This document shows, piece by piece, positions 14,983-48,200 of a DNA stretch of 64,000 nt. The stretch lies in NCBI GenBank assembly GCA_009602725.1, contig WELB01000012.1, positions 1 through 64,000 of the forward strand, written 5' to 3'. Position 1 is the stretch's first letter; each line of letters begins with the position of its first letter. The DNA comes from Spirogloea muscicola. Lineage: Eukaryota. Under the pieces are notes generated by a model. The model saw only the letters and a program-made list of their open reading frames with translations, did not search any database and was not told the DNA's origin. The position numbers and the translations under genes are program-made.

Positions 14983-15767
14983 TAGGGTGCGCCAGTGTGA
15001 GTGTGGCTTTCGTGCAGAGGGTGCTGAGCTCGCCAATCACATGCTGCGTTGCCCTACTGGACCGGAAGTGGTGGGCATCCACAACCTCCTCCGCGATGCC
15101 CTGGCGGGTTTGATGCGCGACGCCGGGTACCGTGCGGTCGTGGAAGTGAACAACATCATGCCTATCACCATGGGTGCCCAGGGACGTCATCATCGCCGCA
15201 CACTTGACATTGTCGGCGTGCCACCTCGTGGAGGACCACGGGCCTTGGTCGATGTTGTTGTTACGGAGGCAAATAAAGGGTCCAGCATCGACACACATCG
15301 TTGGCCACGCAGGCAGTGCAGAGCAAAGAAAGCTGCAGCACTACTCCTATTACCCCCAATGCGATCAGCTCCTGCCAGCCGCAGTTGACATCTTTGGCTG
15401 TATAGGTCCTCGATTCACACTCTCCTCCAGAGTATTGCCAAGCTAAGGTATGCACGACGTGCAGATGTATTTCCTTCTGAGATGGGCCTGCCAGCTGCAT
15501 ATCTGTCGTTCTTGCGACGACGCGTTTCGGCCTAGTTGCAGCGTGCTCAGGCTAATGCTTTGCACCATAAAGCTGGGCGAGCTCTAGTTGGTGGCAGAAG
15601 GGCTTCATATCTGCCATCCAGTATTCAGGCATCGTTTAGCGACCTTTACGTATTGACCCGTGGTTACTGAGCGGGTCAATCTGCTGTAGATGATGTACGT
15701 CTCTAGATGTGCTTCCCTTTGTACTTGGCTGTACTTGGCCTTGGTTTGTTTCAAATACCCGAAAATG
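14983..15767 (+). mobile_element. 5'-truncated CRE-like non-LTR retrotransposon (CCHC + restriction-like endonuclease), frameshifted
   Basis: CECG...HMLRC zinc knuckle, HNLLRDAL, RRTLDIV, LVDVVVT, AEQRKLQHY, AVDIFGCIG, LQRAQANALH, then the stop and a 3'UTR. Confidence 0.85.
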
Positions 15768-16134
15768 GCCTGCGGGACACGGGGGCACAGCCCTTGCCCC
15801 CTTTTGGGCATTCCTTCTTGGGCTGGCTTTTCCCAGCCCTTATCCTCAATGGGCGAGCCCTTCACTATGGGAGGGCCACTTCCATTCACAGCCCCTGCCC
15901 CATTTGGGAGAGCTCACTTCTTTCCTTTGTTTTCCTGTTAGGCTGACCCCCAACGGTTGCTAAGATTGACGATAGAGACGGCGCCCCGGCTCGGAATGCC
16001 CGTCCGAGCTTAAACTTCGTAGAAGGGGAGAGAAGGCGCGCGGAGCGCATGAAATAGGAGGGGGCAGTGGCTGTGAAAGGCAGCTCAAAACGAAGGATAA
16101 GGTTCAAAGATTGGAAGGGTCCCCATCCATCTGA

Positions 16135-17450
16135 AAGAAAGTTCCGTGTATTTAAAACAAACGAAGGCCAAATGGCCAAGTACAAAGGCAAGCACATCTT
16201 AAGACCTACATAACCTACAGTAGATTGACCCGCTCACTAACCACGGGTCAAAACATAAAGGTCGCTAACTGATGCCTGAATACTAGGTGGCAGATACGAA
16301 GCCCTTCTGCCACCAAGTAGAGCTCGCCCAGCTTTCTGGTGCAAAGCATTAGCCTGAGCACGCTGCAAACAGGCCGAACTTGTCGTCGCAAGAACGACAG
16401 ACATGCAGCTGGCAAGCCATCTCAGCCGGAAACACATCTGCATGTCGTGTGTAGCCTAGATTGGCTACATTTTGAAGAGAGTAATGAAACGAGACCTAAG
16501 CAGCCAAAGATGTCGATTGCCGCCGGCAGGAGCTGATCACATGGGGGGAAACGGAGTCGTGCTGCAACTTTCTTCGTTTAGCACTGCCCACTGCGTGGCC
16601 AGCGATGTGTGTCGATGCTGGACCTTTATAGGCCTCCGTAACCACAACATCGACCAAGGCCTGTGGTCCTCCACCAGGTTGCACGCCCACAATGTCAAGT
16701 GTGCGGCGATGATGACGTCCCTGAGCATCCGTGGTGATAGGCATGATGTTGTTCACTTCCACGACCGCACGGTACCCGGCGTCGCGCATCATACCCGCCA
16801 GGGCATTACGGAGGAGATTGTGGATGCCCACCACTTCTGGTCCAGTGGGGCATCGCAGCATGTGAGTGGCGAGCTCAGCACCCTCTGCACGGAAGCCGCA
16901 CTAACACTGGCGCACCCCAATCAGGTATTAGGGTGGGAGGCCGAGGAAGAGTTGAAGCAACGTCCGAAAGGCCTCGGAGCTGATGCTGAAGGCGCTGGCC
17001 ACGACGTGTGAGGTGATCCAGTCTGTGGCTCCAGGTGTGGCGAGGGAAGTAAGTCTTGCCAGGCTCCTTGGATTGTTGTGAATCTCTGGCAGCCTCTTCA
17101 AGCTTCTGCGGCGCTCATCCTCCACTGCTGTAACCAGTCTAGATTGTGCCCCTCTATCCGAAGCTTGGGCGAGGGCGGAGAATGGCGTGAGTAGGGGTCG
17201 TATAGAGGGGAAAGAGCCGATTGCCGAGTCACGGATGCTCCTCAGATCCGCTTGGAAGGGGAAGGAGCCTTCCCCCACATTGCGTACGGGATCGTGGTGG
17301 CAAGGGAAGCGCATGGGAAGCATAGAGGCGATCTGGTGCCAGCAGCCCAGGAAGGCTGCTTGCGCCGTCTGCTCCAACGACCGGCAGCCAAGGCCGCCCA
17401 TGCGAGTGGGGAGGGGAGCCTGGAGGGAAGATGAAGCGGAGGGGAAAGAA
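16135..17450 (-). mobile_element. 5'-truncated CRE-like non-LTR retrotransposon (post-RT thumb region + RLE)
   Basis: LQAPLPTRMGGLGCRSLEQTAQAAFLGCW, ARLTSLATPGATDWIT and ISSEAFRTLLQLFLGLP are typical of CRE-clade elements. They are followed by the same CCHC/RLE domain as 14983-15767. Confidence 0.88.
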
Positions 17451-18160
17451 GAAGTGGCACTCCCAATAGGGGCAAGGGCTGTGAAAAGCCAGCCCGAAAA
17501 AGAATTGACAAAGATTCGAAGGGGCCAAATGATGGAGGGGCCTAAAAGCGCTAAGCAGCTACGAAAGGGCCTCAAGATGCTGTCAGGGGGAGGATGGACC
17601 ACTCAGTAGTTACAAGTGAGGAGCCTCAAATGCGACAGACTAGCTGCCGGAAAACCATCCCCAAAGAGGAATATTGTAGAAGAGATGCCAAGGACTGCAG
17701 CAAACTGAAAGGGCATATGCTCAGTCTGATTTTGGGCCAACTCGTCCAGCAAGAAGCCGGCTTGCTGTGAACGGCTGAGGAAGAAGTGGCTCTCCCAATG
17801 GGGGCAAGGGCTGTGAGAAGCCAGCCCGAAAAGAATTGACAAGGTTCGAAGGGGCCAAACTACGAGCTAAAGCGAGGAAGGCAACGAGAGGAATAAGCGC
17901 GGAAGTGCCGAGCGTCGGTGGCGCACACTTCTAGCCTCGGACAACAGCCTTGGGGTTACTGAGAGTTTCGTAGCTGCTTAGGTTCTTGTTGTGCTCGTTA
18001 TTCTTCGTGCTTCCTCAGGCCCCTGCTCTTGTGTGCTTGCCTTTGTACTCGGCCATTCGGCCTTCGTTCGTTTCAAATACACGAACTTTTTCCTCTCGTC
18101 CTTTGTTCATTCTTTTTTGGGCTGGCTTTTTCAAGCCCCTATCCTCAATGGGCTCACTCT
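17450..18160. mobile_element. Stack of CRE-like 3' ends (two family B ends on -, a family C end with a nested family A end on +)
   Basis: C-terminal peptide ASLSHLRLLTCNY* and repeated GGGCTGG...CAGCCC hairpins. ~17781-17869 is essentially identical to ~63773-63863. Confidence 0.78.
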
Positions 18161-18228: not shown

Positions 18229-21200
18229 ATGGCCGCCGGCCAGAGCGCCGCCTTCTCCGCTGATAGCGCAGCGCTCAGAGCTCTCCCATATGGCTGTGGC
18301 AGTCCGCCTCCTGTCCCGCCCAGCTGGAGCTGCCAGGCGCTCGTCTGCCAGCCCCGGCTCGACGGTCAGCTCTTAGTCACGCCTGCAGGCACTGCCTCTG
18401 TGGAGGAGCATCGCCGAGCAGCCTACAGGAGGTGGACCTGGCCAGCTCATCGTAGCGATACGGAAGCCAGAGATCACGCAGAACAGCGAGTAGGAGCAGG
18501 TGGTCGAGTTCAAGCTCATGCAAGGAGGCTTGATGGTCTCCAAGGACTTGCCACACCCATCAATGCGGCCTATGGTGAGCTTGAAGTGGTCACTCAAAAA
18601 AGCGCATAGAATGTGGTGCAACATTCATCACGAGCTTCTGGTACTAGTCTGGCTGTCTGAGAACATGCTCATGGCATTGCTCTTGACTAGACTTGATCAC
18701 CTGTGACCAGCTCCTTCTCGTTTGTAGGAGAGCAGGCACCAGGAAGGCACACTGATCAGCCTATGCAGCTCTCAGACAACAAGCCAGTGGCAAGGGCGGG
18801 TGAACCTTATGCAAGGTCTGAACGAAGTGCTGAAACCGGTCCGCATGATCACATGGTCGAGGACTCGAACAGCTTGGATAATGGGGGCACTGGTGGAGGG
18901 GGTCATGATGGTGAGCATCATGATGGAGGTGGCCACAATGACGGACCAGCAACTCCGGAGGAGAAGATGTTGATATCATCCGAGGCTGATGATGAAGAGG
19001 CCATTCCGGAGGATGTGAGCTTTGAGCAAGCAGCGGGGACAACGTGGCATCAAAGTGCTGTAGAAGGTGGTGCAGCATTGGAGAGGAGCCAAGCACCGCC
19101 TGTCTTTGCTTCACTGAGTAGCCCCAGGAGCAGTGCACCACCAAGCACAGAAGGTGCTCTATGTGCAGCGCTGAAGCACATGATCTCTGTTTGATTTGGA
19201 GGCTCTTGGTAGGATCTGTAGGTGGCATATGTAGAGATACGTACAAGTATAGCATGCAGTTCATCCATGGAATCCTCCAGGCTTTTGTACCCTGTCAAGT
19301 AGCACACACAATTTACCATGTAGCAGGATAGTTGTCTGCAGCCCACACTGCAGTCCTGACATCGCAGTGTTCAGTACAGTAAGTGTCCAGTCAAAAGTGG
19401 GCCTCACTTACACGAGTACAATGTGCTATTCTGGTCACAGATGGCAACGCTGCTGCAACAGGCTCTATGTTGCATCAGAGCACCAGTGATGAGGAAGTAG
19501 TATCTGGAGCTGATTCTGGCAAGGTGAATCTGATCCCTTCGGCCTGCCAGATAAAGCCAGACAGTGCATGATGAGTCCAATCAAGTCACACTTCAGCAAT
19601 GAGAGCTTGACTCCTGAAACTGCTTACTATGGCCCTTCCATGAGTGACTAGCAAATGTGAGATGTCTAGCCTGTGTCGTTGTCAACACGCGATCTGGCAC
19701 TCTCATATACGTATAGCACCATCTTGGCTTCAAATGCGTTCAGTGGCCAGCTCAGGAGGGTGGAAGTACGCTGATACCAGACTCCAATAGTGAAGCTGCT
19801 GGTATCATTGCTACATTGAAGCGGTGGACTGCCAAGCTTATGGAGGTTGTAAGTGGAACTACAACAATGAAAGATGAGGCTGGCGGGCCAAGGGTCCAAC
19901 CAAGCAGCAGGCGTGAGACAGAAAGAGAGGCTCTCCTTTCGGAGACAGCTAGGCTGGTCCTGGACATGCTTGAGCAGCAAGAAGGTGACGGAGCCCTTGC
20001 TCATCGTTCTGAGGTGCGTTGTTGCTGCAGGCAAATCCCAGGCAATACAGCAGCAGGAAAATGGAAAATCAAGCACCAGTATAGTGAGTACATCTGACAG
20101 CGGTGTAAGTACAAAGTCTTTGTAATGTGCTAGAATGTCCTCAGACCAATGAGATGAAATTGACAGGTCAGTGCTCTTAGGAGGCTGCAAAGAGAAGCTT
20201 TTGCTGATCTGCTCAAGGCAAGAGAGCGCTTGGACAAATTGGAGCACCATACTGGTCTTAGACGCCTAAAAGGTCCTGCTGATCCTCAGGTTTGCCTCTG
20301 ATTTGCCAACTATCAACACTTGTGAAGCATGCCTACTGCTCAGCTAGAAGAATATGTGCTGCAAGGAGAAGGCTCACTTGCAAACAAGCAAGACCCATAG
20401 CATCAAGATTAGTGCAAAATTGGACAGTCAAGTATGCGAGTTTGGTCATGCTTTGTCCAGGGTGGCCCTCGGACAAGGTTGAAGGGCGAAGTCACAGCAG
20501 GAGCTGCCTACGTCCACGTGGATCCATCTGCTGGGGACATAGCCCGCTCTGCTTTAGAGCAGGTCTGACTTGAGCTGGTTGATGTCTTTTCACTTGTATG
20601 TTTGTGCTCCTTGATGTGCTTGCCTTTGACATGCACCTCACAGAGATTGCAAAGAGATTGTCTGCTGTGATGATAGTTGTGGAATAGTCATGTCCTTCAT
20701 CAGTGTTGCCAGACGTCAAGTCTGTCAGTTGCCTTTTATGTTTGCGCCATCTATTCTGACAACTACTCACGGGATTATGGTTGTGCAGCTGGACAGGGCT
20801 GGCATGAAGACTGGTTTACAGGTCAGGTTCAGATTTGAGACCCCCTTTCGGAAATATGACTCATTGAGTACACAATTCATTGCTGGCTACGAGGATCGAA
20901 GTGGCAGGTGCTTGTCAGTACATCATGAGGCCCTTTTGGGCTGGCAAGTATTCACGGCGTAGGAGTGATTGGATGTTCAGTTGCTTGTACTCCATACGTG
21001 ACCCACAGCTAGCAGTGGGTGCTCTCCACTTTGTCAAGACCAATACAAGAAAGACAGGACAACACTGCTTTCCTCAATCTCCATGACTCTGCGCTGTAAG
21101 TATCAAGCAACTCAACATTGGGCTTACATTGCCCTCGCAATGCAGCCACTTGACAGGCGGCCCTCTTCTGCTGGAGAAGGTCATGTACACGACTGAACTT

Positions 21201-23689
21201 AGCGAGGAGGTGACTATCAAGGCAGCACCTATTGGTGCAAATGGAAAGGATATGATTGAGAATATCAATCCCCTCCAGGTATCAAGTTGACTATTATCAT
21301 GGAGCAGTAACCTTATGAATTAGTTTACGGCTCATGAGAAGCTATGCCCAAGTCTGGAAGTCGTGCATGCAATAAGCATCATAAAGTTTATGACACACTC
21401 AAGATCATAGCTGAATACGTCAAAGTCTTGTCTAGCTCTTGTGTGACTTTTGGTGATCCCCTTAGATCTTTATCTGAGGGGATCATCCATGACAAGAAGT
21501 GCTTAGAATGAGCAGTCAAAGCGAACATGACAGTTGTACTGCATGCCCCAGGCAAAAGCCCACAGTCCATGATAGGTCCTTGTAGCGCACTTGCACTGTC
21601 TGCCAGTCCAGCAAGCATGCATGCTGCAAGTAGGACGCAGTCGTGAGCAGCGGGCTTGTCTTCCTAGCCCGAGTGACCACGAGGACGTACGAGGATTGGA
21701 ACAGCAAGTGCGACTCCCATGGCAATAGCTGCAATAGCTGCATTGCAGCATGGATTGGCCCGCATGACTGACAGAATGCCAGTTCTTATTCAGGACCAAG
21801 CTTTAACTACATCTGCAAGGAATGGACCAAGCCTTTTCAGCAGATGTGTTGGCTCTGCCGTGGGCGTCTCTGTGAAAGCATCGAGAGCTTCTTTGTGTCT
21901 TGCACAGCTGTTGGGTATCGGGAATGATGGCCTCTCTCAAACAGGCATTGAAGATGGGCCCGTCTGCTCCAGGTAGGTCCCCAGCTGCTGACAACTCACT
22001 CAAGCTTGAGTTTGAGTTTTCTCTCGTTCATGTGTGTATGACATCACCTTGTGCTCAACCTACAACCAGCAACAATGAAGCATCACTGAAGATGTGGGCA
22101 AACGCTGAGATTGATCTTTTCATAGCATGGCCTGCTGGCAGCTTAGGAATAGGCTACTGACATGTGGTCGTCGTGCCAATTCAGTACTTTGGCACAGCTC
22201 ACGCTACAGCCCATGGACCGCCTGCTTCTCTCTTTCTCTTCTGTGAGCCAATTTTGGCCATCACCTCCGCCTCTTGGGGCCACTGGCATGCATTGGAGCG
22301 AGATGGGTCCTTTGATCATACCAAAGCTCAGGCCTCTTGCCACTATGACTCGCTTTTTCCAACATAGATACTCTACAGAGCAGCAGATTGATGGAGACGG
22401 TGCACCGGGGGCGCCTCAGGTACTTCAGTAGGCTGAACTGCTTGCAATTGTGCTGGGAAATCAGCAGCTGTCTACCTCCTCTGATGAATAGTGATGATAT
22501 ACGTAAGGCTTCAGTGGATTTAAGCAGACTTTTATATGAGAGTATGCAGTTCAATCAAGTACACGGGCTTCCTGGCACGACCATGCAGGTACGCCTTTCA
22601 TGGACAGATCTGGCTTCACACACTCACGCCACACACAACACGTTCTCTACTGATAGCAGTCTTGCAATCAACTATGACCTGGCAAAACGAGAACCTGCTA
22701 GTTGCGCCCTTCATTACAGCAGCGTTGTGATCCTTGTCTTTGGCAGCAAAGTGGCTATTGGGACAATATGCTGCTGCTCCTTTCACCTTCTTGCCAGTTG
22801 CATTGGCATTGATAGAACTATTGGCATAGTATCTCCTACGATGGCCTTCTTGCTTGGAAAGGAGTCATCCAGAATGACAGAATGTCTAGGGTCAGTCAAT
22901 GAGATTGTTTGCTTACCTACTGTGTTTCCATGCAGTCTGTTGCTATGACTGGAGCACTTGATGTGGGGGCTGCAGCAACGTTAGCTTGTTGGGCCCAGGC
23001 AGAAAGAGGCCTTTGGTCATCCGAGAGAAGTCACAAGGGACTGGAGTGGAATCTCAGCCTATCGAGGTTAGTGTAGCACTCATCCTGTCTTGAAGACCTG
23101 CTGACTTCAGCTTCACATTCTCACCTCCACATGTGGTGCGTGAGTTGCTACATTGGTCTGTATGAAGTACTCCTGTGCAATTGAGAGGTAGCCGGAATAA
23201 CGAGCCTTATGATGTTGACGGCTTTCTTCTGGCAGGACACCAGATGGCTCACAATCAACAGGCTGGGGTATTGCCATTGGCAGTGGAAGCTCAGATATGT
23301 GGTTCACGGAAAATGATAACTCTGAGAATGCACATACATTAATCCAGGTAACTTCCAGCTACATTGATATGATGCTCTCGAAAATGTCTGAGTCTTGCTG
23401 TGACTTGCGGAAGTGTCTTCTAAGAACCTGGTCCAAGCACAGGCATGTGTGCGATATTGCTTACCGGGGAGAATAGAGAGACAACAGCTGTAAGGTTTCA
23501 GGCTGGTAGCAATCGGAAGCATAACGTGCACAGTTCCTTTCATTAATGCTTCAGGGTATACAGGCGGAGGCATTCCTGCAGCTTGGCGTTGGTAGAGGTT
23601 GCAAACTGCAGCCGGGCTTGCTTTATGTCACAGATAGATCATCGAGAAATGTCCTTTCCTTTATCCTACGTAGTCACTGGACACTCTGA
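18229..23689 (+). CDS. Probable outer-envelope beta-barrel protein; homolog of an uncharacterised land-plant family (recalled as At1g11320-like) and of cyanobacterial SomA/OprB-type porins
   Basis: About 13 GT-AG exons; those from 19744 onward are phase-consistent (19744-20013, 20167-20289, 20461-20562, 20789-20907, 21146-21278, 21794-21972, 22185-22419, 22936-23066, 23236-23347, 23564-23689). They encode LRRLQREAFADLLKARERLDKLE, TRLKGEV, VRFRFETPFRKYDSLSTQFIAG, LLLEKVMY, GWGIAIG and AEAFLQLGVGRGCKLQPGLLYVT...FILRSHWTL*. Confidence 0.8.
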
Positions 23690-24579: not shown

Positions 24580-25548
24580 GGGCTCAGAAGCGCTTAGCAG
24601 GAGCGCTCGTAAAAATCAAGCGCTTCGAATGCCGCGGGGAGCAGCAGGCGGACCGTCGCCCGGGTTCTGTGCGCATCCCAAGTACGAGGCAGGGGCAGCC
24701 ACCAGAAGGCTCCCGGCTGTCGGCACCTGAACGTTCGGGAACCCCTGGCATGCGCCGCGGAGGCGTGTGGGGGCCCACGGGGGTGCTGAGGCGGACCGGC
24801 GGTAGCCGAAGCTGAACCCCCTCGCCAGCTGCGGAACACGAGGGATAAGCATGAGGGGGGGGGGGGGGTGAGGTCGAGGGGAAGAACGTGTGGGGGGTGC
24901 AGTAAAAGGGGGCAGCAGAAGAAGCAGAAGTAAAAGAGCGCGCAGGTGCGCATGAAGTAAAAGGTTGGCCTTTCCAGCCAAAACATTGTGTTCAGGCAAT
25001 AATAGTGCAAGAATGGGGCCACATGGGGCTATTTGGGGGGCTTCGGCAGCTAGCGGCGCTCGTCAGGCCCGCCTCGGTGAAGCGGCGGACGAGAAAGGCC
25101 GACGATTGGGGGAAGAGGCGGCACCGTGCGCAATGAATGGCGGGGCGACAAGGGGAGAGGCGGTACAAGTGGGGCCCGGCACGGGGGGGGGGGGGGAGGG
25201 GAGGGGGGAGGGCCCAAGAAATCGGCGCGCCCGGTGGCCCAGGCGCGGCAGGGGGAGACGGCATAGGATGCCCATGTGTCCTTAACGGCGGGGGGGAGCG
25301 ATAAGTGTGCCCAGCGGGGCGGCCCGCCCGCCGTCACGTGGCCGCGCGGCCCGCGGGGGGCGGGGGAGCTGGCACGCCGCCGCCGTGGCGCCAGGCGCCC
25401 GCGGCAGAGGCGCGGGGAGCAAATCTCCGATCTGGGCGCCGTCTCCGCCCACAGCACCTGGCGGCCCCCTCCTCGTCGTCACGCGGCGGGCGCCTTGGCC
25501 GGTGGGCNCCGCGCACGGCCGCGGCCAGCGCCCAGCCGCGCGGCCGCC
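24580..25548. promoter_or_regulatory. GC/CpG-rich promoter region of the MYB gene, with G-runs and a G-box/ABRE
   Basis: Very GC-rich with long G tracts at ~24854-24900 and ~25182-25213. CACGTGGC lies at ~25335 and GATAAG at ~25300. Confidence 0.5.
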
Positions 25549-28159
25549 ATGGTGCGCGCGCCGTGCTGCGACAAGACGGGCCTGAAGAAGGGGCCGTGGA
25601 CGCCCGAGGAGGACGAGAAGCTCGTCAAGTACATCGGCGAGCACGGCGACGGCAACTGGAGCACCATCCCCAAGAAGGCCGGTGAGCGGGCGCCGCCGGC
25701 TCGCCAAACCGCCCCTGCGCGAGGCCTGCCTCGCCCGTCACCTGCATTGCGCTGGCCGGCATTTGCCTTCCCTTCCGGCGTGGCCCTGGGACCCTGACAC
25801 AGCCGCTTTGCCTTGCTCAGGCCTGCTGCGATGCGGCAAGAGCTGCCGGCTACGCTGGGCCAACTACCTGCGGCCGGATCTTAAGCGCGGCTCCTTCACC
25901 GACGAGGAGGAGCAGCTCATTGTGGACTTGCACGCTGCCATTGGCAACCGGTATGTGTGGCTTTTTCAGCTTGTGCCAGCCCTGAGCGTCCTTGAGTGGC
26001 CCACTCAATGCCTGCATTGGGTCTGGCGCCGCGACCACTGACCTGACCCAGAGCACATCTCCTGCTTCCTGCTGTGGCAGATGGGCCCGCATTGCTGGCC
26101 AGATGCCTGGTCGTACAGACAACGAGATCAAGAATTACTGGAACACGCGCATCAAGCGCAAGCTGCGGCAGATGGGCATTGACCCCGTAACACACAAGCC
26201 CCTGTCCGAGCTGGACGACTTCAGCAGTGGCCTGTCAGGTGTGCGCCATTGCTCACATGCTGCCCTCACACTTGGCATTTGCGCTAATAATGTATGAACC
26301 ACAGATTTATGCAATAGTGAATTGGATGCATAGGCATGGCGACTGCGTAAAGAGGCATGGCAACAATGCTGATTTGCTTGGTCTTGACGCAAAGGAGTGC
26401 TGTGTTTGTTCTGTTTGTAGCCAAGGTCTCTCCCAAAGTAAAGGTGGAGCGACCAAGGGGCCCTCTGCGAGGGCCTTTACCTGCGGGCTTGCTGCTGGAA
26501 GAACTATCACCAAGCGCAGCCGCCGATGCCGTATACCTAGAGCAAACACAGCTGAAGTCGAGCTTCCTCCTCCCATTAGCTGCGCCATCACACCTCCTGG
26601 CCTCCCCCAAGAACCTCTCCCCCCGCGCCCAGAAGCTTGTGCGCCAATTTCGCCGGAGCACGGCGGCCGCAGCAAACAAGAGAACGCTGGAACAAACCTT
26701 CAACAATGACATGGAGGGCATGCCTCCTCACCGCAGCCTGCATCATGAGAGTTCTGATGAGGACCAGTCAGAGGCCAGCTGCAATACCAGCTCAGCATCA
26801 GAGAGGTGAGCTTGGCACCTGGCACCTCTGTCAGCTTGCAAAATACGAAATTTCTGTCATGGACATTGGGGCCATTTTCTTGCTACATCTTCACTTTTGA
26901 TGCAAGTCTCTGACTTATTGTAAGGGTTTTGACAATTTCCTTCACCAATATTAGGTCCTGGTCAGGCCTAGCCCCGTAGGGCCTGACTTGCTTGGCATGG
27001 TCATAATGGGCATTCCTTGCCACAGTTGGTGTCTTACACTGCTACGATGTTGTCACTCCGGCTTTTGCAGCGAGGAGAGTGAGGAAGTGAGTGCCTCAGA
27101 GAGCTTGGAGGAAAGGGAGCTGCCCTCATCACCAACGAGCGTCATCCCTACCACGAGGTGAGGAATTTTGCCGAATGCTTGTACATCTAGTGGCGAGAGA
27201 ACCGGGCTGGCATCTGACTGGCTTAAGGACTCTTTTTGCTAGACAGTAGGCTGGAAATGCTGGACAAATGATGCAGGCAGGCTGACTATTTTCTTGTCGG
27301 CTTTGGTGGTGCAGCAGCGTGGCTGCCACACACGCCATGCTCAAGCGCGCGGACATTTCCATCTCCATCCCCAACCTGGGCGAAGCCTTGCAGAGCCCGA
27401 GGGTGGACGGCGAGGCGCTGCTGCCCATGCTCATCGACCCTGCCACCATCAAGTAAGACGCCTGGGCTGCTCATTTGACGCGGCCAATTTTTGATGGGCT
27501 TGTAAGCTTATCGAGCAGCTTCAAAAGTCCACGTTGCTTGCCATCAGCTGCTGATAGCGGTGGTCTGACTTCTGCTCTGCTCTGACTTCTGCAGTGGAAA
27601 TGTCCTGAGCCCACTGCTGGCTAAGACCTCCCTCTGGGGCACCGACACCGAGCCGCTGTGGTGGGAGTCTGAATTTGCCAGCGGCATGACGCCCAAGCCC
27701 GCTGCAACAATTCACGGTACCAGCCTCATTGGCAATCTCACGTCCTTTGACGAACAGCCGGCCACAGCCCGCAAGGGCAGCCGCTCTGAGTGCGACCTTC
27801 TCTCCTGGAACTCGGCTTCAGCGACCGTCGAGACCTCCGCCAGCATAACTATGGACGGCCTTTGGGAGCTCTCCGACCTGCTGCAGGGCTCATGCTCAGG
27901 CGGCCCGCAAGCTCCTGCTTCGCAGCAGCAGCAGTCCACCTGGGTTGACTACCTCTCCCACTCCGTGCTGAGCCCCCGCAGCAGCAACTGGACGGGCGGG
28001 CCCACCGCCAGCCTGCAGGAGTCCTGGGACAGCACGAGCCTTGCGGCGGGCATTGCCGGCTTGCTCAGCCCGCTCTCCCATTCGCGCTTCTTTGGCATCA
28101 CCCGGCCCTGGCCCACTGAGTCTGACAGTGCCCCGCCGCTGCGGGTGCCAGTTGTATGA
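25549..28159 (+). CDS. R2R3-MYB transcription factor (subfamily VIII type, GIDPxTH motif)
   Basis: [25 protein letters not shown]...[24 protein letters not shown]...[43 protein letters not shown]. Further exons at ~26421-26805, 27071-27157, 27315-27452 and 27594-28159. Confidence 0.95.
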
Positions 28160-32990: not shown

Positions 32991-33264
32991 GAGCTACCGA
33001 GTGCCAAACGCCCAGTGGACGTCGAATGCAAAGGATGTAAAAAGAGAGAAATGATGTAAAAGGAAATGACCATGTCCAGTAAGCGATAGCTGTGATCGGC
33101 AAGGGGTGGACAAGCAGCTGCAGAAGGTTTTCTCCACTACCTTAGAAATAGTACTTTCCTCCGTCGGCCCACGCCCTTCCCCTCCATGCCCCGTGCTAGG
33201 CCCCCCAGCCGCGCGCGGCACCGCGTGGCGCCTCCATAAGCGCAACTGCCGCTCCGCTGCCACC

Positions 33265-36200
33265 ATGTTCGAGGGCTTGGTGCACCAGCTTGTGGCCGGC
33301 TACCTGGGCCACTACTTCACTGGCGTGCAAAAGGAGCAGCTGCGCATCGGCCTCTGGAGTGGTGAGAAGCACCGCTGGGCGGACTCGCCACTCCGCCTGT
33401 CTCCTTACAGAGCGCGTTCTGCCTGTCCCAGCGGCCTGCTTTGCCACCGGCTGCGCGAAGATATCCTGACCTCCTCCTTCACACTACTCGACTTAGACTT
33501 GAAGTCTTGTGGAGCTACAAACCTCATGCGGCTGATCTGCAGCATCGGCACTGCGGTGGCCACAGGCATTGTGCTGCTGGAGAATGTGGAGCTGAGCCTG
33601 GAGGCCTTTGACCATCTGGAGCTCCCATTCGCAATCAAGATAGGTCGGTCAAGCTCCGTTGCCTCTACTTGTGACTCACTACACTCTGCTCAATGGCAGC
33701 CTGGCTGGCTGCAATGCCGCCTGTGCTACAGGAGCTGAATGATTTGGTTCTTGAATATTCAACCGAGTGTCATTCAGCGCGGGTTGGAAAGCTGAGGCTG
33801 CAAGTGCCATGGAAGAAGCTCGGCTGGGAGCCCCTGGTTGTCTCCATGGAGCACGTGACCATCTGTGCAGGCCCCAGGGAGGAGGCAGAGGTACGTCAAC
33901 AATCTCGGATTGCTCCTGGCTCTGTCAGCCGCCTGTGCTCACGTGGTCTGACTGTGCTGGCCTTGACAGGCTGCACATTTGCTTGCGACTACTTATCTGC
34001 GTGTACCAGGGCAGACAAGTGGTGCTGCTATTATCTGTTGTCACAAGCAATTATCACCTGCAGTTACTCCTCTTCTCACACTTAGTAGTGGCCTCTGAGG
34101 CGGTGGTTTTGTTAAAGTGGGCAGGTAGAGCTCTTGCTGCCATTTTGTCTCTGACTGCAGACGCGTATTTGACACAGTGGGAAGCAGGTCCGTCTGAAAA
34201 GAGAGCACGAGAAGCAAAGCGTGCCAAGTTGGCAGCAGCCGAGCTCGTTAAGCTCTCCCGCCGTGTTTCAGGTCAGCTTCAGGGCTTCCATCTTGCATCT
34301 CCACCAGTTGTATAGCGTCCAGCTGCTGGTGAAAGGAGCTGCATCGAGGGCAGTGCTAGTCAAGGCCAGGTCTGTCAGAATGTTGGAAGCTGCACAACAA
34401 AGGGCAGGTTATTGTGACTGGGGCTGAGCAGTAAAGACTTGGACATATGCATGTGTTCAGGCTTGCACATCTCAAGTCGAGCCTCTCCTGCTGGCACTGT
34501 GGCCTGATGCAGAGGATAGGTCTGGATTATCCTACATCTCCTACTTGTCAGCAAAGGTAAGCTTGTGCACCAGTTTGTGGCGATCAGCTATTTCTTTTGG
34601 ACCTGCAATTCAAAGCATGGGCCCTTCAAGACTTGGTGGAGCTCGACCTTCTTACGCTGCATATCGTACGCATGCAGAAAGGGCTTAAGTAGATTGATGC
34701 TGTTCAGCTGGTTATCGCTTTCCACCTGGCTGTGCGTGTTTGTGCTGATCACGCAAGAATGCACTTTCTGATGTTCAGATCATTGATAACGTTCAAGTCT
34801 CCGTCAGCAACATTCACCTTCGTTATGAGGACTTTCAGACAAATCCTGAGGTAATGATTTGTGGTTGTAGTGCTGATGCACTGTTGACCTTGCCATGGGT
34901 AGACCACTAGTGGATAGAACAAAGTTGTGATACCCATGCCAAACCACCAGATAGCCAAGTCCTCATCACCTCTGCTTTTCTCCTGCAGGAGCCATTTATT
35001 ATAGGACTGACTCTTGAGAGTTTTCTAGTAAAGACAACTGACGCTATAACTTCACGAAACTCCTTGAGTTCCTCAGGTTCCTCAAGGTGACCCATAGCAT
35101 GCAAGTCAAGCAGCTCTACCTTCTCATGATGGCTTCAGACAGTAGGGTTGGCACTAGATGTTTGTGGAGGGCACTTTCATTGTCCATCTTGATTTTTAAT
35201 AGACTCTGCTCCTATGACTTGGCTGTAGAATTAGTACTTATTGGGATCTACACTTACTTACTCAGAATCTGACTGACTGGTGGTCAGCTTGGTCCAATCG
35301 TCTGCAGCCCTTCACCATCCGGGATCAAGAAGAGTCAGAGGGGTGTGGTACATAAGCGAATTAGCATCCAGAAGCTGGCAGTGTACTGGGACTCGGACGC
35401 CAAGATGCTCAACTGTAACGAGCAAGGGCACCTGGAGGCTGCTGACAAAGGAGAAGAACATGCCTTCATATTGCAGCCTATGGATGCAGGCCTTGACCTC
35501 ACTGTAAGCCACCTTCTTGTTGCATGTGCAATCAGATTTCAAGTGGACTCTGTTGATTGTCATGTTTGCAAGTACTTGCAAACATGACAATGCAAGTCAT
35601 TGTGAGCCATGACAAGTCATTGATGCCGTGCAGATCAGCAAGAGCCTAGGTCAAGCTGATGGGAGTCCTCAGTACGATGTTCAGGTGGCTGTGAACGACG
35701 TGGTAAACCTTCTACTTCAGTTCTAGTCACAGCCACTGATTTGGGCCAATCTCCCAACATAGCGCTAGGGCCAAGAGCAACCTGCAATTGCTATATGTAT
35801 AGGTCGTCAGGTGCATGATTCTGATGACGTGTCAGGCTTCACTTTCATGCACATCTTCATATCTCCATGTCTTGGGGGCAGGAGAGCATCTACTTTCTAG
35901 CAGCTGATATGGAGAAGTTGCATGTACACTGCAGGCACTTGCACTGGACGATCATCAATACCTGGACATGCAACTGTTGGCAGGGGTGATGTCCATCTAT
36001 CGAGTGCGAAGAAGGTTGGCCAACAGACTGCAAAACAGACTACAAAACATCAATGTCTGACATGTACCAAGTAACCGCGGCATGAGCAATGTATATGTAT
36101 AAGTATGGTGACAATTTCTTATGTATGTTGGCAATCTCATTGGAACACAGCAAAAGCTTCACTGTGCCCCTGTGAGGAGCATCTTCCTCTCAGGAGCATC

Positions 36201-39200
36201 TTCCTTTCTCGTACTGTACAGATTTGGCAGATATCGCCCAAATCGTGCTGATGGTGCGAGTATGAACTGGAGAAAGTGGTGGCAATATGCAACAGATGCT
36301 GTCTTGGTGGATGTGAAGCAGCGGCTCAAGCGCAGCTCCTGGGGCTACCTGGCTTGGCGAATGTCTGCGACTCCTTCCTTTGTCGTGTTCTGGTCACATG
36401 GCTAGTGAGCTCCCTGCATATATGAATTAATCCATCTGCTTGCCAAGTGGAGAGATTGGCTGGCTATGTCAGTGTCAGAAATCTGACATGTCTTATGCAA
36501 TTAACGTACAGGGAAAAGCAGAAGGACTATGTTGCCGCGTACAAGCGGAAACTGTGCTGTGTCAGGCAGGGGCAGGTAACCCTTCTCAAGAATCGGTGCA
36601 GGTCTCAGGGTCTTGCCGAGCTTCAAATTCGTGTATTCATATCATGTGCCATCATCTCGCTCCTGACAACACACAAGGGCTGGTTTTCGATCACATAGCT
36701 CTTGAAAGCGGACGAGATCAAGAAGCTCGAGGTGCTGGAGGAGGAATTAGATGCGGATGACATTCTTTTCTTCAGGAGCTTAGCAGAAGCACAGCTTCAC
36801 GTGAAAGTGAGGCAAATTTGTTCTATGTTTGTCTGTGTTCTCTATGTCACTCTCTATCTTAGTTATGCTGTAAATTCATCTGCTTGAGCACCTGATTTGT
36901 CACTTGCTGAGCAGTGTGGGTTGCTGTAAGCATCAGCAGAAAAGCTTCAATCAATCTGTGATATGAATATGATTGACAGCAGTCCAGCAAAAGCACATTA
37001 CTCAAACTCATGCTGTTCTTACGTCTCGCTCTACACAGAGTTCAAAAGAAGGACAAGAAGAAGCACAGAAGATGATGCCTGAAAGTGGCACGGCGCAACA
37101 TCCAAAGCAACGTGGATGGCTTGATTGGCTGTCACTTGGCATGCTTGGCTCTTCCATGACAGCCAATGACTTCACTGGGGCCATCACGCAAGCAGACCTT
37201 GAGGTCAACAAATAACCTCAGCACAAGAAACGCACTGTAGAGATCGTATAATTAATCGCCAAATTATAAGATTGACTGAAGTCATTACTTGGCGTGTGAC
37301 TTGCTATAGGACCTCTATGCAGCAACAGAATTTGTTCCCAGTCCTTTGGAAGAGCAGAGCTACTATTCAAAGGGCTTCTGTGTTGCAGCAGTCAGCATCC
37401 AAGTGGCTGAGGCCATTGGCAGCTTACGAAGCTTGTGAGCATGAAACACACAGGCTCAAAGTAGGTTGTCCTAGCTGGCATGTAAAGATTGTCCTTCCAA
37501 GCAAGTTGCTTCTCGCAGATAAGCAGAAATGATGTCATACCAGCTTATTTCAAGTCCTACCCGAAAGAGTGTCCACTCTCATATCTCACTGTACTTTCCC
37601 AGTCTTTACTGAATGTGGTGTTGTGCCTGCAGGACTCTGAGATGTACTCTCGTGGATGCCAGATTGATGGATGTGAGGGTGAGCGTAATGGTGTGGGGCA
37701 AGTCTGTAACAGTCACTGGAACACTGGGATCACTGGAGGCGGTAGACCTGTGCAGCTTTGGCACACTTTTCCCCTGTATCATTGGCGCACAGGTGGTCCA
37801 TTTCAGATGCCTGTGACTCACCACTACGTTATCTGCAGATATTGGCACAAAGCACAGTGCAGGCCTTGAGTCAACAATGTAATCATAAGCACGATCACGT
37901 CTTGCATGTCAGACTGTTAGGCTGACCACAAAATCGTGAGTGCTTGCTAAGTTGCCCTGACACTGATGCACATCTCTTTGGCTTGCCCAGAAGCATGCTG
38001 CTTCTGCAGAAGCCGGAAGTGAATCTCAACTGGATGACACGGCCAGTTGCATCCATCGAAGCATGAGTATTCCTACAGCTTCAGCTGCATCGCAGTCTGC
38101 CACGGAAATGCCACTGCTTAGGTCCAAGAGCAGTGCTTTTCTGCCACCCTCTGTGGTTTGCAGCCCTACTACGAGTTTCTTACAGCTTCACTGCCAGATT
38201 GCACCAGAGGATTCAGATATGGACATTGACATCAAGGTTTGTGTGTGACTCATGCTTGAAATGTGCGTCATGCGAGGCTAGCTTTGCAGTTTCCTGCCGA
38301 TATCATAGAGCTTGACTCTCATTCTAGGAAATGGTTTCATTGCTCTGCAGGTGTCACTGCAGCCCTTGCAGATTGTGTACAGTCCTGAACTCGTGAGACA
38401 AGCTGCAAGCTTTTTCAGCCACCGCACTTCAGTGCCAACGCATCACCAATTGGTGAGGCATTTGTCGCATCTGTATCACATGATGGCAACTTAGACAAAG
38501 GGGGATGACAATAACCACATGTTCCTTGCCAGTCTCTCGTGTGCGCAAACAATCGTAGTACAGATGTGCAAGGTAAAAGCACCTCTGCCAAGCACCTCTG
38601 CCATTCATCATGGTGTATGCTGATGCCTTGCAAGGAGTCAGGTGGTTGCTGCCTTGAATGGCCTTGAAACTTTGAGAGCACGGACGCTTTCAAAGGCCGA
38701 GTGAGAGCAAGCCCTTTCCCTGATTGATGAAGCTGACAACTTGCATGAGCATGCTCAATGGTATACTGCCTTGCATAATGCCACATATTTTTCGATATAT
38801 TTGATATGCTCAGCATCTGAACACTTGCAGCAGCTGAGTAGCAATAAACTGTTGGATAATTGGCAGATACGTTATTGCCACACACAAGCGGGTCTCCATA
38901 CAAGTAGATATAGATTCCACTTGCCTCGTCATCCCAGAGTGCAGCACCTCGCCGCATGGCCTGCTCCTGGTATGCGTTCTTATTGATCCAGGTTGACAAA
39001 GTGCAAGGAGGCATGTTGTCCTGCTCTGAAACAGCACGACCGAGCCTCGCTGTGAAGTGTAGTAGGTCACTAGTGCTGGCAGCATTGTCCTCTCCTAAGT
39101 CTCTCCTTCAATGAGATGGTTTTCACCAATAAGCTGGCATTGGGCTGAATATTGCAATGGCGTGTTTCATCTGTTGCATGTGATCAGGCTGTGAGCTTTG

Positions 39201-42200
39201 GGTCAATCCATTTTGCTTCTGCTGCTGACCCGCCAGCGCAAGCTCGAATGAGCTTAGATTTCGCGACGCGGGAGGCGTACATACATTCAGGAGAAAAACC
39301 TAGGAATATTGGTCAAGAAAGTAGCCTTCACTTGTTAGAAAAGGCCGCTCTTTATGATCATTACAGGCTCGATATTGCAAACTTGCAGGTATAGATACAT
39401 TTTAATTTCCCTTACCCTTTCCCTTACCTCACCCAAGGCAGCCCTTCTCCTCTCCTTGATGTATTGCTGCTTGTATTATTATTGAGCAGTAAACATGCTT
39501 CAGTGAATACATTGTCGTACTGAGCAATGTCAACTTTGACAGGAAGGTTGCACCCGCAATGGCATCAATCCTCTCCTTTTCTGATGTAGGCCATTAATCA
39601 CTTATTATTTGGCAGGTCATCATGGCCCAGCAAGATGAGGATTGGCACGCTATGCTGCGCAGCCAAGTTGTAGATCACGAGCGGCACCTGTTGCAGCCAT
39701 TAAGCTTGCAGCTTACTCTAGATATGTGTGCCTTACAGAATGACAAGACATTGACAAAGCTGAAGGTCTGCATACCTATCTTGCAAGCTGCTTTTCATTG
39801 CAGATGTACTGCACTTCCCACAAATATGGTGAATGTCCACTAACAGAAGTGCTGACATCTGCAGAACAATATGGCTCATCGCCCTTTGGCAATTTGCAGG
39901 TGGGAGGAACAGCTTCCGAGTTGAACTTGCCCCTTAGCCTTGCAAAGTGCCAGGCACTTGGCAAGCTGATTTCCAACCTTGGTAAGCATGTCACATCCAA
40001 GGACAAGTCCACTTCATGTGGCGGAGCATTTTCCCTGCCATCTACGTTGACAAAAGCAGCAGCTGTACAGACGACTGAGGCAGAAAGGTTGAGACCGTGT
40101 GATGAGTCAGAGAGCCTAATGGCTTCAAGACAAGCTAACAACACCACTGTCAGCAGCAGTGACACCACTACTTCTGGCACATCTTCTATACATACTGTGA
40201 TTCCGCAACAAGATCGATCCGAGTTTCTGAATTCTATACAAGTGAGGAGCAGAAGCAATGGGGAAGCAAGCACAAGTGGGCAGCTCCCATCAAACGAGTG
40301 CTGGGGACCAGCAACCCTGGAGCAAAGGTCGGGGTCTGCTGCAACTCCATTATTTCCAGATATAAGCTGTGGGTAATGAATTAGATAGCATATCTTGCAT
40401 CTCTTGCGCTTGAAATGGACAAGAGGCGTGACTGAAGCATTGTAATGGTCATATCACACAAGCCCTTGTGTCGGTACCCTACTTTTCACACTACTAAAAG
40501 TGTACTCCTGTGCTATGCAGTGAAGCAGCATTGGTCGATTTAGCGTTGTTCGTGGAAGTGGTAGTACTTAGCTGGAGCCCTGAAGCTGCAGTACATACTG
40601 GGCTTCTGAGAGCTAGCCCTCCAACATTGGTCGCTCGTGGCAGTGACTGTCGCTTGAGGTACTTCCAGAAGAACAACAAGACAAATAGTTCTGTAGAGTA
40701 CAATGGAGGACCCGCACATACTGTAGGTGCAACTTGGAAGATCATGGCTCCTGATTTTAAAGTCGTCATCCCAGAGGCTGACAGATTCTCTTTTCAGGCT
40801 GAGGCAGGTAGGTTTGGCCAAGAATGCAGTGTATATGCAGTATGACTTTGAATATGACTTTATGATGTGCTGTGACATGCATACCCCTGCATCCCTTCAT
40901 GGGTGGAGCGCTGTCAGTCATGGTACTATCGATAATTATGCTGATGATAGCTAAGAAAAGTTTGGCATAACGCTTGTGTTAGATCTTGTGACACACAGAT
41001 TCTTGTCAGCTGCGTACTACGAATTTACTGGGGGAGGTAACTTTATCCAGGTGTTATGTGATCACAATGAACTTTTCAAGTACAATTGAGCAGAGTGCAG
41101 GGAGGTTGGAGTTAGGTACAAGCTTTGATGCCAAAGTTGTTGGGATTCAAAGCATGCTAAAAGGACAAGATGGCAAGGAGCAAGACTTTCAGATGCCTCT
41201 TCTCCAGGCTTCAAGGGTACAGGTTTGTTAGCATCTTCTGGGTAGGCAAGTATGTTGCATGGAGGGAGGCATGATGCATGGTGTAGTCGATCTCTATATA
41301 TGACTCCCTAGGAAGACTCAAGCACATATGGTGGGACACGGAAGGCATCTCTATTGTTGTCAGACTTCTCTCCTTACTGGCATTTTGATATCTTCAATCT
41401 ATGTGGGCTATGCAGCTGACTTGCTTGATTATGAAGTTGCCACGGAGCAGCAAGAGCAGTCAAGGTCATGATAGTGGCCATGAGGCTGCAAGTGTGACCA
41501 ATGTGACCATCAAATGTGATGGACGTATTGGGGATATCCAAGGGTGGTGTTCCCACCAGATCCTAAAATTTGTCTCATCATTCGAGTTGGAACACTTAAG
41601 GCGTGCACCACTTTCTTTAAGTGATGGAACGGAGATCTCTGCGCAGTTCTATGTGGAGAAGTTAAGCTACCACTTGGGTGACAGCAGAGTATGTCCTGTT
41701 ACTCTTTTCTCAGCGAGGGGCACAAGACATAGATATGCACAGGGGTTAGAGATTACTGAGTCTAGGTTATTTTAGGTACTCAGTGCAGCCAAATGTCATT
41801 GCTGCTTACTGGTATCAAATTACACACAGAATCCAGTTGGATTTATTGAGAGCAGAGTTGTAGCTTGTGGAGCTACTCGTGGATGCGTTGGGCAACATGC
41901 TCTATCAATTGCAGGGGGAAGTTAGTGACCAATTTCCAACAACAAAGCGCTGTTGATTGCAGTGGAAGTTTGATGCACCAATTTTAGATTGTTGTCTGCG
42001 GGAGCTGAATGTATCTGGTCAGCTTCTCAACCTGGAGGCAACAGCATGCGTATCGATGGAGCTAAATTTGAACTACCACAACACACACAAGGTTTGCTGA
42101 ACGTTAAAGCTGAATCTCCTCCGTTGTTCCATCTTCTAAATTACTGCAGGACTTTCTACTTTACTGCAGGAATGATGAGGCAACCATTGGCCCCAGTCTG

Positions 42201-45200: not shown

Positions 45201-48200
45201 TGTGGGGACTTCAGTGTACCATCCTTGACAAGCGTCACAAGCCCTTCTGCTGCAAGGCCAAGAGGGCTGCTTGATGCTCTGCCAGGACCGGATGACCTCG
45301 GTGGGAGTCAGGGAGCTCCAGTAGAAGGGAAAGCAGGGAAAGGAGCTCCGTCAGAAGGAACAACTCTGCTGAGGAGTATGACATTACCGACCAGATTTGC
45401 AGACACTGCGGACGTCCAGAGCAGCTTGGGACTGGCATCAGCCTCTGCTAGTCACTTGGCAGATATGGAGGCTCTGCTACTGACAAAGAGGCTGCGAGAT
45501 CAGCTTGCAAAGGACAGCAAGGAGGTGGGACTCTATTCACCTCCAAAAAGGCGAGAACAGCGGGAGCCATGTCTGAAGCTGGGATACCAAGGGATGTGGA
45601 GTGAAGCGATGCCGTTGGAACCTCCTGGTGCAGTTGCAGTAGTGTCTATTCCACAGCGAAGAGGGCATGGGGCGTACATTCTTGCTCTTTCTGTAACACA
45701 TCCTGTTGACCTGCCTTTGACAAAGATACTTACCTTCCAGCCCAGGTCCGTCAGCTCAAGCAAGTAGTCTTAGCTCCACGAGCATTTCGCGAGCCCGTCA
45801 AGCCCATCCCCAGATCTGGTTTCTTCTGCTCGACCTGCTGACTTGTGCATTAGTGCATGTCCTCTTGTGAAATCATCTGATATCTAGTGCATGTCCTTGT
45901 ATACTATCATATTGATGAGGTTAATCAAGGCTTAATGACGCTGCACTCTCACTACACACAGGTTTGTTCTTGTGAATGGGATGGGAGTGGATGTTTGTTA
46001 CCGTCAGCAGGGGACTGACACCTTTCTGCGCCTGCCGGCTGGCGATCACAAGCCCCTCCATTGGACAAATATACAGCGGTACAGCTGTTTGTTTCTTTCT
46101 CTGCGAGTAATCTAATGTTTGACCTGAATATGAGAGCTTCAATGATGCATTGTGATGCTATGATGCTATGTACTGTCGCATTCTTGCTGTAGCTTGCAAT
46201 GCCATGCTGGCCAGCTCGTGCAAGTTGGAATTGATTGGCAAAAACCTGATCTTGGGCCCCACAGGAGCCTGCTTGTCTGCACGAGAATTGATGAACATGG
46301 TTGGGACTGGTCGGGAGGTTTCGCGCCAGAGAAGCTTGGAGATACACAGTTGAAGCTACGCAATGTTGTGACTGGAGAAATCCACATGGCCAGGGTCAAT
46401 GTTAGTACACCGAAGCCGAATGACGGGGCTCTGGCAGAGCCTGCAAGCCAGAGTGTTAATAGGAGTGGGACCTGTATTATCCTGATGACGCAGGATGAGA
46501 CGCAGTTCATGCCCTATCGTATTGAGAACTTATCCACCGAGGTACGAAGACTTGGACCATCCAGGATAGTAAGAGCCAAAGCTAGCTGAATGGTTTCCGT
46601 GCTAGTTGCATAGTATGTCATTGGACATCCGCAATCGTCGCAGTTATATTACTCTGCAGACTGCCACTCATAATAATTCTAATCCATCAGCTCGGCATTT
46701 GAGCTTCTAGTGTAGGCCGTACTTGAACGAAAAAGTGACATGTTGAATGCAGACCCTCATTTTCTATCAGCAACGATGTGAGACATCAAGAGACACATTA
46801 CGACCTTACAGTTCTTGCCTGTATGCATGGGATGAACCATGTTTGCCTTACAGACTTGTTCTCAAGGTGCACAATACGTATACTTTTCCGACATCCTTAC
46901 ATTCATGCACCATAGTTTGTTGGACTACTGTGCACAGCAGCTGTACAATTTGACAATATGCGCTCCCCAAGGAGCTCCTCATTGGACCTGGTTTCTGATT
47001 CAAGAATGTTCATCCACAAGGGTGATGCACATTGGCTTTTGCAGGTCAGAGGAGCTACATTGGGTACTTATCAATTAGATGAAGTCAAGCAGCATGGACA
47101 AACCACACTAGCTGCAACTGCACAGGTTGGTGTTTATCTACATCGTAAAACTGCATCAAAGATCTTTCATGTCAATGCTGATCTGCAATGCATAGGATGA
47201 TGGCAGTTGCTCCTTGTGCTGCTAACCTTATGCTCCTCACCTCCTCTTGCATGCAGCGACCTGAACGGCATCTCCAAGTGTCAATCTCCTCGGAGGGTCC
47301 AACTCGGGTACGCTTTGGATGAAGCAGTGCTCCTAAGAAACTCAAAGAAGACTTATTCCTGTTAACATGGAGTCTGTATATTATGGAAGCATGTGCAGGT
47401 AGTTGTCTGGCAGCCCATCATATACATTGACCTCATCGTTCTGGAGTCAAGGCAGTACACCATGGATACTCATAGAAGAGCATATGATCGTGCAGGTACT
47501 CAAGGTGATGGATCTCGACTTACATGTGGTGGAAGACAATCCTGAGGTTGCATCCTTCAGCAATAAATACCAGAAGGCGACAGCAGCCGGCTTTGTACCT
47601 CCAAGTTTACAATTTTTGGAATCCGAGGTCAACATTACGCTGGACAAAATCGGCATCTCCATAATTGACTCAACTCCCCAGGTACAGATCAGAAAGTCCC
47701 TCTGACTTTCACAGTCACAAAGCAACTGGCAGTGACTTATAATATCACGTCACAAGTCTTAGAGTTGAAGCAATTTTGTGAGATGGAGCAGATACATCCA
47801 GTCCACAATGGGCAGTCGCAGACACCACAGTTTGCTCTACCAGTGTATAGTGCCTGTAGATGACAGTAATTTCAAGCGCAAGGCCATTTGCAAGAACTGA
47901 TTGCTGCAAATTACTGCAGCTTCTGCAAAAGCTTTGCACAAGGGGACTTACTATACTCAACTGTACCTGCAGGAAATAGTCTACGCATCTGTGCAGGGTT
48001 TATCATGCTGTTATCAGAAGGGGCACCTGCAGCAGCTGCTAGATGTTCAGGTCCAAGCCCTGCAGGTTGATAATCAGCTCCAGTATGCCACTTTCCCGGT
48101 ACTTCTGTCTTCTGTACCAACTGCAGGCGCTATTGCCACCTTGGGCTCTTTTGAAGTTGCTGAGAATGTCAGTTCTCTGGCTGCCCTCTCGATATTGGCA

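Follow-up and report, generated by a model that had tools for sequence, protein, structure and literature searches.

A nuclear gene of Spirogloea muscicola related to cyanobacterial SomA/SomB porins encodes a predicted 16-stranded barrel, a likely protein of the plastid outer envelope

Cyanobacterial porins of the SomA/SomB and Slr1841/Slr1908 type (SLH-OprB porins; NCBIfam NF033921, TC 1.B.23) act as ion-permeable channels and as tethers; they let inorganic ions through and contribute to the uptake of iron (preprint 10.1101/2020.03.24.006684; PMC8707739). OmpM1 of Veillonella parvula (8BYM/8BYS) is a trimer with an SLH domain and, ahead of its barrel, a triple coiled-coil stalk (PMC10628300). 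The cyanobacterial porin family is given as bacterial only in PMC4827864, and such porins are stated to be not conserved in plants in preprint 10.1101/2020.03.24.006684. A 2025 preprint (10.1101/2025.06.18.660430) surveyed four other OEP barrels and obtained no cyanobacterial sequence match for any of them. Here we describe a nuclear gene at positions 18229 to 23689 (+ strand) of a 64,000-nucleotide stretch of DNA from the alga Spirogloea muscicola (contig WELB01000012.1; the whole stretch is called the window). The gene belongs to the family of Arabidopsis At1g11320 (UP1, Q9SXB7) and is a homolog of SomA/SomB. Our favored reading, held with reasonable confidence, is that its protein, predicted to be a 16-stranded barrel, is likely located in the plastid outer envelope and likely lets small solutes through, for example inorganic ions.

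The core of this link has been noted once before. Imai et al. reported in 2011 an HHomp value of 100% to cyanobacterial SomB for the Arabidopsis counterpart and tentatively suggested a possible chloroplast barrel (PMC3045335). An earlier note on this DNA had called the gene a candidate unrecognized plastid outer-envelope channel; given the 2011 paper, it is not wholly unrecognized. The SomB link was found only in PMC3045335 in a literature search whose coverage excluded most subscription papers, and the supplements of PMC8836251 and of bioRxiv papers may list the gene. The main text of PMC8836251 has no mention of At1g11320, and in preprint 10.1101/813725 the protein continues to bear the name GDSL lipase. 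The present analysis adds whole-length collinearity, the 16-strand model, the range in green plants, a polyglycine signal and a corrected gene model. The finding is real, partly known and under-recognized.

The gene has 14 exons and 13 introns, all 13 with GT-AG borders, and the spliced exons form a single stop-free open reading frame of 810 amino acids that starts with the ATG at 18229 and ends with the TGA at 23689. Exons 1 to 5 lie at 18229-18574, 18728-19153, 19441-19523, 19744-20013 and 20167-20289; exons 6 to 10 at 20461-20562, 20789-20907, 21146-21278, 21794-21972 and 22185-22419; and exons 11 to 14 at 22550-22588 (39 nucleotides), 22936-23066, 23236-23347 and 23555-23689. All are on the + strand and were placed from GT-AG borders, spliced contigs and the deposited model P0001. 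The spliced contigs come from sequencing run X5, which is RNA by guess only and is not on record as RNA. They contain nine GT..AG joints, and 9 of 9 coincide with introns of the model (9 of the 13 introns directly bridged). Introns 2 and 3 are backed by one X5 joint that encloses 86 letters (the 83-nucleotide exon 3 plus 3 nucleotides), and introns 1 and 8 by X5 loose ends at the end of exon 1 and at the start of the long exon 9. None of the X5 joints is present in DNA run X1 among the rows listed. Only 30 of the 80 X5 contigs are 99% or more identical, and some may therefore come from near-identical paralogs or from a relative. The spliced reading frame proposed in the earlier note is borne out. 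All the motif blocks it quoted are found in place, in order and on the + strand, and the X5 joints agree with the exon junctions that it had named beforehand as the point on which RNA could overturn the model.

Both end coordinates of P0001 are those of the 14-exon model, and the sole difference is that P0001 lacks 38 amino acids of exon 9. The missing 5' part of the exon (21794-21907, + strand) encodes strands 6 and 7 of the predicted barrel, including the GSAVGVSV block, and appears as a gap in the deposited P0001-P0003 alignments and as an X5 loose end that runs from exon 8 to 21794. The deposited exon 9 is too short, and the earlier note was correct to include the GSAVGVSV block, because the X5 joints and loose ends match the 14-exon model with the long exon 9. 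The shorter exon was rejected: the long form fits the loose end at 21794 and raises the score with a hidden Markov model (HMM) built here from 127 cyanobacterial porins from 40.8 bits for P0001 to 58.6 bits for the 810-residue protein. Two more copies, P0002 and P0003, are about 90% identical to P0001, lie on other scaffolds and carry the same source prefix, which suggests a recent duplication or triplication. Strands 6 and 7 are skipped in both copies as in P0001, and P0003 has a read-through C-terminus. A search for single-exon homologs returned the gene's own deposited model as its only match.

The homology to cyanobacterial porins is collinear from a stalk helix to the last strand. NF033921 (por_somb) matches P0001 with E = 8.3e-8 (31.3 bits), starting at profile position 66. 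The same profile matches 12 of 12 whole relatives (E from 5e-13 to 1e-4; best relative 48.5 bits). Another 36 members include 27 that match at E ≤ 0.1, of which 23 reach ≤ 1e-3, and nine that do not match; with single exons as queries, one of three matches, and that one barely (E = 0.04). Alignment of 148 plant sequences with seven cyanobacterial porins by hhalign gave 99.7% and E = 7e-27 over about 360 columns that begin in the coiled coil and reach the last strand. In the bacterial proteins this stretch coincides exactly with the region that Pfam assigns to OprB, after the SLH domain; it opens at cyanobacterial residue 143 (L002), where Pfam OprB starts. In controls for the porin HMM, 79 of 200 shuffles of the core were reported at all, the best at -0.1 bits, and the reversed model was unreported. 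In tblastn searches of 72,556 plasmids, the Sphagnum protein P0006 returned cyanobacterial porins in 8 of 8 records, and the Mesostigma protein P0035 returned 14 cyanobacterial records out of 23, the other nine being noise at E = 5 on its N-terminus. A 52-row plant profile matches 39 of 121 sampled genomes of the cyanobacterial phylum at E ≤ 1e-12 (best 1e-34); the remaining 82 have no match at this threshold. In the ESM Atlas, the streptophyte clusters and the cyanobacterial OprB porins each score 0.96. The kinship to SomA/OprB-type porins put forward in the earlier note holds with por_somb, hhalign, tblastn, the HMM and the ESM Atlas alike.

The plant proteins differ from the SomA/SomB porins in several respects. 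They lack SLH, fall under the family cut-off, share about 18-19% identity with the cyanobacterial proteins and are nuclear and spliced. SLH (PF00395) is present in 2 of 2 cyanobacterial controls and absent from P0001, as the earlier note had stated for this gene, and from 76 relatives; Pfam finds nothing in this same set beyond unrelated fusions. The invariant C-terminal F-x-F of the cyanobacterial porins is usually W-x-L/F/M in plants. The window protein ends in W-T-L. Phe is the final residue in 43% of the 44 plant rows, compared with 100% of the 45 rows from cyanobacteria, and the Arg that precedes this motif in the last strand is common to both. By descent and predicted fold the window protein may be described as SomA/OmpM-like, and it is not a formal member of the SomA/SomB family (no SLH, below cut-off).

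A 16-stranded barrel is predicted. The structure model of At1g11320 (predicted local distance difference test score, pLDDT, 84) consists of a long helix at residues 37-71 followed by 16 strands, as expected from the barrel proposed in the earlier note. All 16 strands map onto the window protein, where the predicted barrel covers amino acids 421-810 in exons 6 to 14 (20473-23686, + strand), and 16 of 16 have the hydrophobic register found in the aligned cyanobacterial porins. The conserved helix (amino acids 372-405; 20002-20256, + strand, spanning intron 4) corresponds, by model and alignment, to the coiled-coil stalk found in SLH porins. It occupies residues 369-404 in the P0001 structure model, is 70% hydrophobic in its best heptad phase, and keeps its R-L-x-R-E motif in 91-98% of 44 plant rows. 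Foldseek returned 16-stranded porins for both the At1g11320 and the P0001 models. In the VIA comparison of the At1g11320 model, OprB of Pseudomonas putida (4GEY) came first with Z = 23.8 (root-mean-square deviation 3.7, 283 aligned), and OmpM1 had Z = 21.5 (4.0, 280 aligned). Such Z values are due mainly to the barrel that all these proteins have in common. OmpM1 was joint first among 48,161 chains in the fold comparison, and its alignment includes part of the stalk helix. Identity to OmpM1 and OprB is 8-10%, with no sequence-level match in the PDB, where the sequence search gave Gly-linker noise only; OmpM1 differs further in retaining SLH. No plastid barrel was among the 50 best fold matches, an absence from which nothing follows. 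By Pfam and fold comparison only, OEP21/24/37/40, Toc75/OEP80 and TGD4 have no Pfam match in the family, and the top fold matches are bacterial 16-stranded porins.

Conjugating algae, mosses, liverworts, ferns and Selaginella all have relatives of the window protein. A profile search of 1.84 billion representative sequences gave 211 matches at E ≤ 0.001. Taxa were looked up for 30 of the best 150 of these matches; 15 bore a taxon name, and 15 of 15 are green plants. The streptophytes among them are Arabidopsis (Q9SXB7), Welwitschia, Elaeis, Paspalum, Oryza, Chlorokybus and Mesostigma, and the chlorophytes are Tetraselmis, Coccomyxa, Bryopsis, Apatococcus, Ostreobium, Cymbomonas, Myrmecia and Trebouxia. 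The family is pan-green, from chlorophytes to angiosperms. A range confined to streptophytes, as the earlier note had assumed, is too narrow and was rejected on the eight named chlorophyte genera. For green plants, the family contradicts the claim that such porins are not conserved. In a 44-row tree the topology is roughly that of plant phylogeny: land plants group at 100/99, a clade supported at 99/98 unites the window protein with land plants and conjugating algae, and Mesostigma and Chlorokybus branch deeper. This position makes a streptophyte alga near the land plants the likely host.

The cluster P0053, which contains At1g11320, was matched at E = 1.7e-55, in keeping with the kinship proposed in the earlier note. 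The Arabidopsis protein is about 26% identical to the window protein and has the same helix and the same 16 strands; it differs in having 35 residues before the helix versus about 373 in the window protein, which carries a transit-peptide-like start, a polyglycine run and an acidic linker there. The database label of At1g11320, repeated in the preprint noted above, would make the window protein a GDSL esterase/lipase, and this reading is effectively refuted. Neither the window protein nor the Arabidopsis protein has a GDS[LYIN] or DxxHP motif, an FGDS motif was not found in any of 220 proteins, there is no Pfam hit, and the predicted fold is a β-barrel. The earlier note was right to doubt the label. 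Two records of the Arabidopsis cluster, P0174 and P0170, show the family protein fused to an S-receptor-like kinase, which points to gene-model fusions with a neighbor.

Origin from the plastid ancestor has one competitor, a horizontal transfer into the green-plant ancestor from a non-cyanobacterial bacterium with OmpM or OprB. The taxonomic sample leaves some room for it, as no red-algal, glaucophyte or Chlamydomonas member occurs among the 15 taxon-named matches of the 30 looked up. Glaucophyte outer membranes are reported to have non-cyanobacterial channels (10.1101/2020.03.24.006684), and controls from Thermus, Deinococcus and Thermotoga give weak por_somb matches, which may be due to SLH alone. 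However, all organism-named bacterial matches to the core are cyanobacterial, and many core positions are common to the plant proteins and the cyanobacterial consensus. We consider such a transfer very improbable and retain cyanobacterial descent. The trees could not pick the closest cyanobacterial paralog class. Scored with the plant profile, the best porin paralog is far ahead in G001 (C99:48761-49927; 119.7 versus 75.6 bits) and G002 (C73; 81 versus 52) but not in G003 (C24; 79.4 versus 73.8 bits). One porin on a contig labeled Acetobacteraceae (L026) is nested among the cyanobacterial ones, probably through a binning error or a transfer.

The N-terminus of the window protein has three parts. 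Amino acids 1-75 (18229-18453, + strand) form a transit-peptide-like start with a putative targeting role (Ala 19%, Ser+Thr 13%, Asp+Glu 5%). An acidic, low-confidence linker (Asp+Glu 16%, no Pfam match, no SLH) follows at amino acids ~76-340 in exons 1 to 4 (18454-19950, + strand); residues 1-298 of the P0001 model have pLDDT < 50. Within the linker lies a glycine-rich run resembling the Toc75 polyglycine (amino acids 168-182, 8 Gly in 15; 18883-18927, + strand), a density reached by 4 of 500 shuffles. The earlier note had described this region as long, acidic and disordered, which is correct but incomplete, since the transit-peptide-like start and the polyglycine run are also present. Among members with extensions of at least 80 residues, 35 of 47 have a Gly run reached by at most 8 of 500 shuffles. 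Algae and ferns mostly have the transit-peptide-like start and polyglycine and seed plants are without it, with only 31-35 residues ahead of the helix in Arabidopsis, Elaeis and Welwitschia.

In Toc75, a polyglycine stretch behind the transit peptide keeps the barrel from entering the stroma (PMC5147994). The family extension resembles this signal in composition only: in 35 of the 47 members with long extensions, a Ser/Thr-rich, acid-poor start is followed by a Gly run ahead of the barrel. Toc75 belongs to a separate barrel family (no Omp85 domain match here), and the Gly run of the window protein is shorter. The extension may be a Toc75-type polyglycine sorting signal, and the family may be a second barrel to employ one; no paper making this point for the At1g11320/UP1 family was found in the literature searched. 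The gene would have come from the cyanobacterial endosymbiont and been inherited vertically, and a transit peptide with polyglycine would have taken the place of its bacterial signal peptide and of SLH, the part that binds the wall. The precursor would enter through TOC and halt in the intermembrane space, and OEP80 would insert the barrel, as for Toc75; this import and insertion pathway is described in PMC12373785. Seed plants would later have lost the extension.

Envelope localization is known for the Arabidopsis protein. GFP and FAST fusions of At1g11320, UP1::GFP among them, label the chloroplast envelope (PMC6601204, PMC13263057), and proteomics also places the protein there (PMC6601204). 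The envelope check suggested in the earlier note is answered by this literature as far as the chloroplast envelope, although the supplement of PMC6601204 files the protein under another membrane (see below). Porin-type barrels are not known outside outer membranes. Cyanobacterial kinship and the Toc75-like polyglycine point to the plastid outer envelope.

Several results weigh against parts of the favored reading. The por_somb scores of 31-48 bits are far under the curated 100-bit family cut-off, and At1g11320 itself matches only at E = 0.035. Pfam OprB matches 0 of 76 members at E ≤ 0.01 and 0 of 7 at E ≤ 10, so the profile check proposed in the earlier note succeeds with NF033921 and hhalign but not with Pfam; this failure may be why the link between plants and cyanobacteria is missed. 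In the porin tree proposed there, the family roughly tracks the plants, but no nesting of plants within cyanobacteria appears, because the plant clade is on a long branch and the tree has no non-cyanobacterial outgroup (one tree held 89 rows; the 44-row tree was built without 10 of the plant rows and without 35 of the 45 cyanobacterial rows). The structural Z-scores hardly set OmpM1 apart from other 16-stranded porins. The window protein was folded only as P0001, which is 38 residues short and yields 14 strands with a mean pLDDT of 59; the 14 strands arise because the deposited model skips strands 6 and 7. Twelve of the 47 long N-termini have no significant Gly run. The PMC6601204 supplement, with seven peptide matches, files At1g11320 as 'Inner Envelope Membrane', gives it no transit peptide prediction and carries the TAIR note 'mitochondrion, plastid', and in preprint 10.1101/813725 the protein is reported to leave the envelope fraction in the cold. 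No channel measurement for the family was found in the literature searched.

The location entries among these results would fit a real barrel that resides elsewhere, in the inner envelope, in the mitochondrial outer membrane or in two places. Imai et al. left a mitochondrial location open (PMC3045335), and a 2026 preprint (COB; bioRxiv 10.64898/2026.07.15.738633) could not assign its 16-stranded group BUL16 ('barrel of unknown localization') to the chloroplast. BUL16 shares with the At1g11320/UP1 family 16 strands and a variable, low-confidence N-terminus, and differs in being reported as restricted to Magnoliopsida; the available COB text has no mention of SomB or OprB. Compared by description only, the two may be the same family. 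NP_172599 has no match in the COB text, in which the gene table is an image outside text search. Against such a placement stand the fusion proteins at the chloroplast envelope, the cyanobacterial kinship and the polyglycine, and we judge it quite unlikely.

The outer-envelope barrel would be a low-abundance passive channel and not a bulk tether as in cyanobacteria, and three copies of its conserved helix would come together as an OmpM1-like stalk within the intermembrane space. A structural job is the chief competitor: with the same origin and fold, the barrel would serve as an anchor and the stalk helix would tie the outer envelope to a partner in the inner envelope or wall, or scaffold a complex, and would transport little. 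Throughout green plants the helix ranks with the most conserved parts, also where there is almost no N-terminal extension, the first strands and loops hold many invariant Gly/Pro/Asp positions, and tethering was a main role of the cyanobacterial ancestors. The wall-binding SLH is absent, however, and the Arabidopsis protein is scarce (the seven peptide matches) versus the Slr1841-type porins, which account for about 80% of the protein in the outer membrane of cyanobacteria (10.1101/2020.03.24.006684). The less hydrophobic face of the strands is still charged, with about 10 basic and 8 acidic residues in each plant protein; the cyanobacterial figures are 11 and 6. A mainly structural role is unlikely in our view, though it deserves attention, and a channel remains the preferred function.

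A more ambitious version is possible but doubtful, namely that the dominant cyanobacterial porin, held to have been lost at the origin of the chloroplast, survives across green plants as a trimeric, OmpM-type outer-envelope channel in which SLH was swapped for a Toc75-like signal and which still carries metal ions such as iron. If true, the plastid surface would have a solute channel with a traceable cyanobacterial pedigree. The family bears on the question of how a cyanobacterial outer membrane was converted into the plastid outer envelope. An ion route across this membrane is directly testable, because the family supplies a named, envelope-localized Arabidopsis gene that the wrong 'GDSL lipase' label had hidden.

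The surroundings of the gene in the window were also annotated. Immediately upstream, 15000-18153 is a repeat-rich block with nested inverted arms (15000-15279/16623-16902, 93%; 15526-15729/16175-16378, 91%) and one motif that recurs at 15803, 17448, 17780 and 18102. Read depth is extreme at 18100-18150, and a high-copy element thus seems to end about 75 nucleotides before the ATG. Downstream, an exon at 25267-25797 (+ strand) encodes a Myb DNA-binding domain (E = 1e-11). Farther on, 33070-50506 (+ strand) matches the N-terminal part of VPS13 at one end (33070-33738) and the C-terminal part at the other (50141-50506), which suggests a long, multi-exon VPS13-like lipid-transfer gene.

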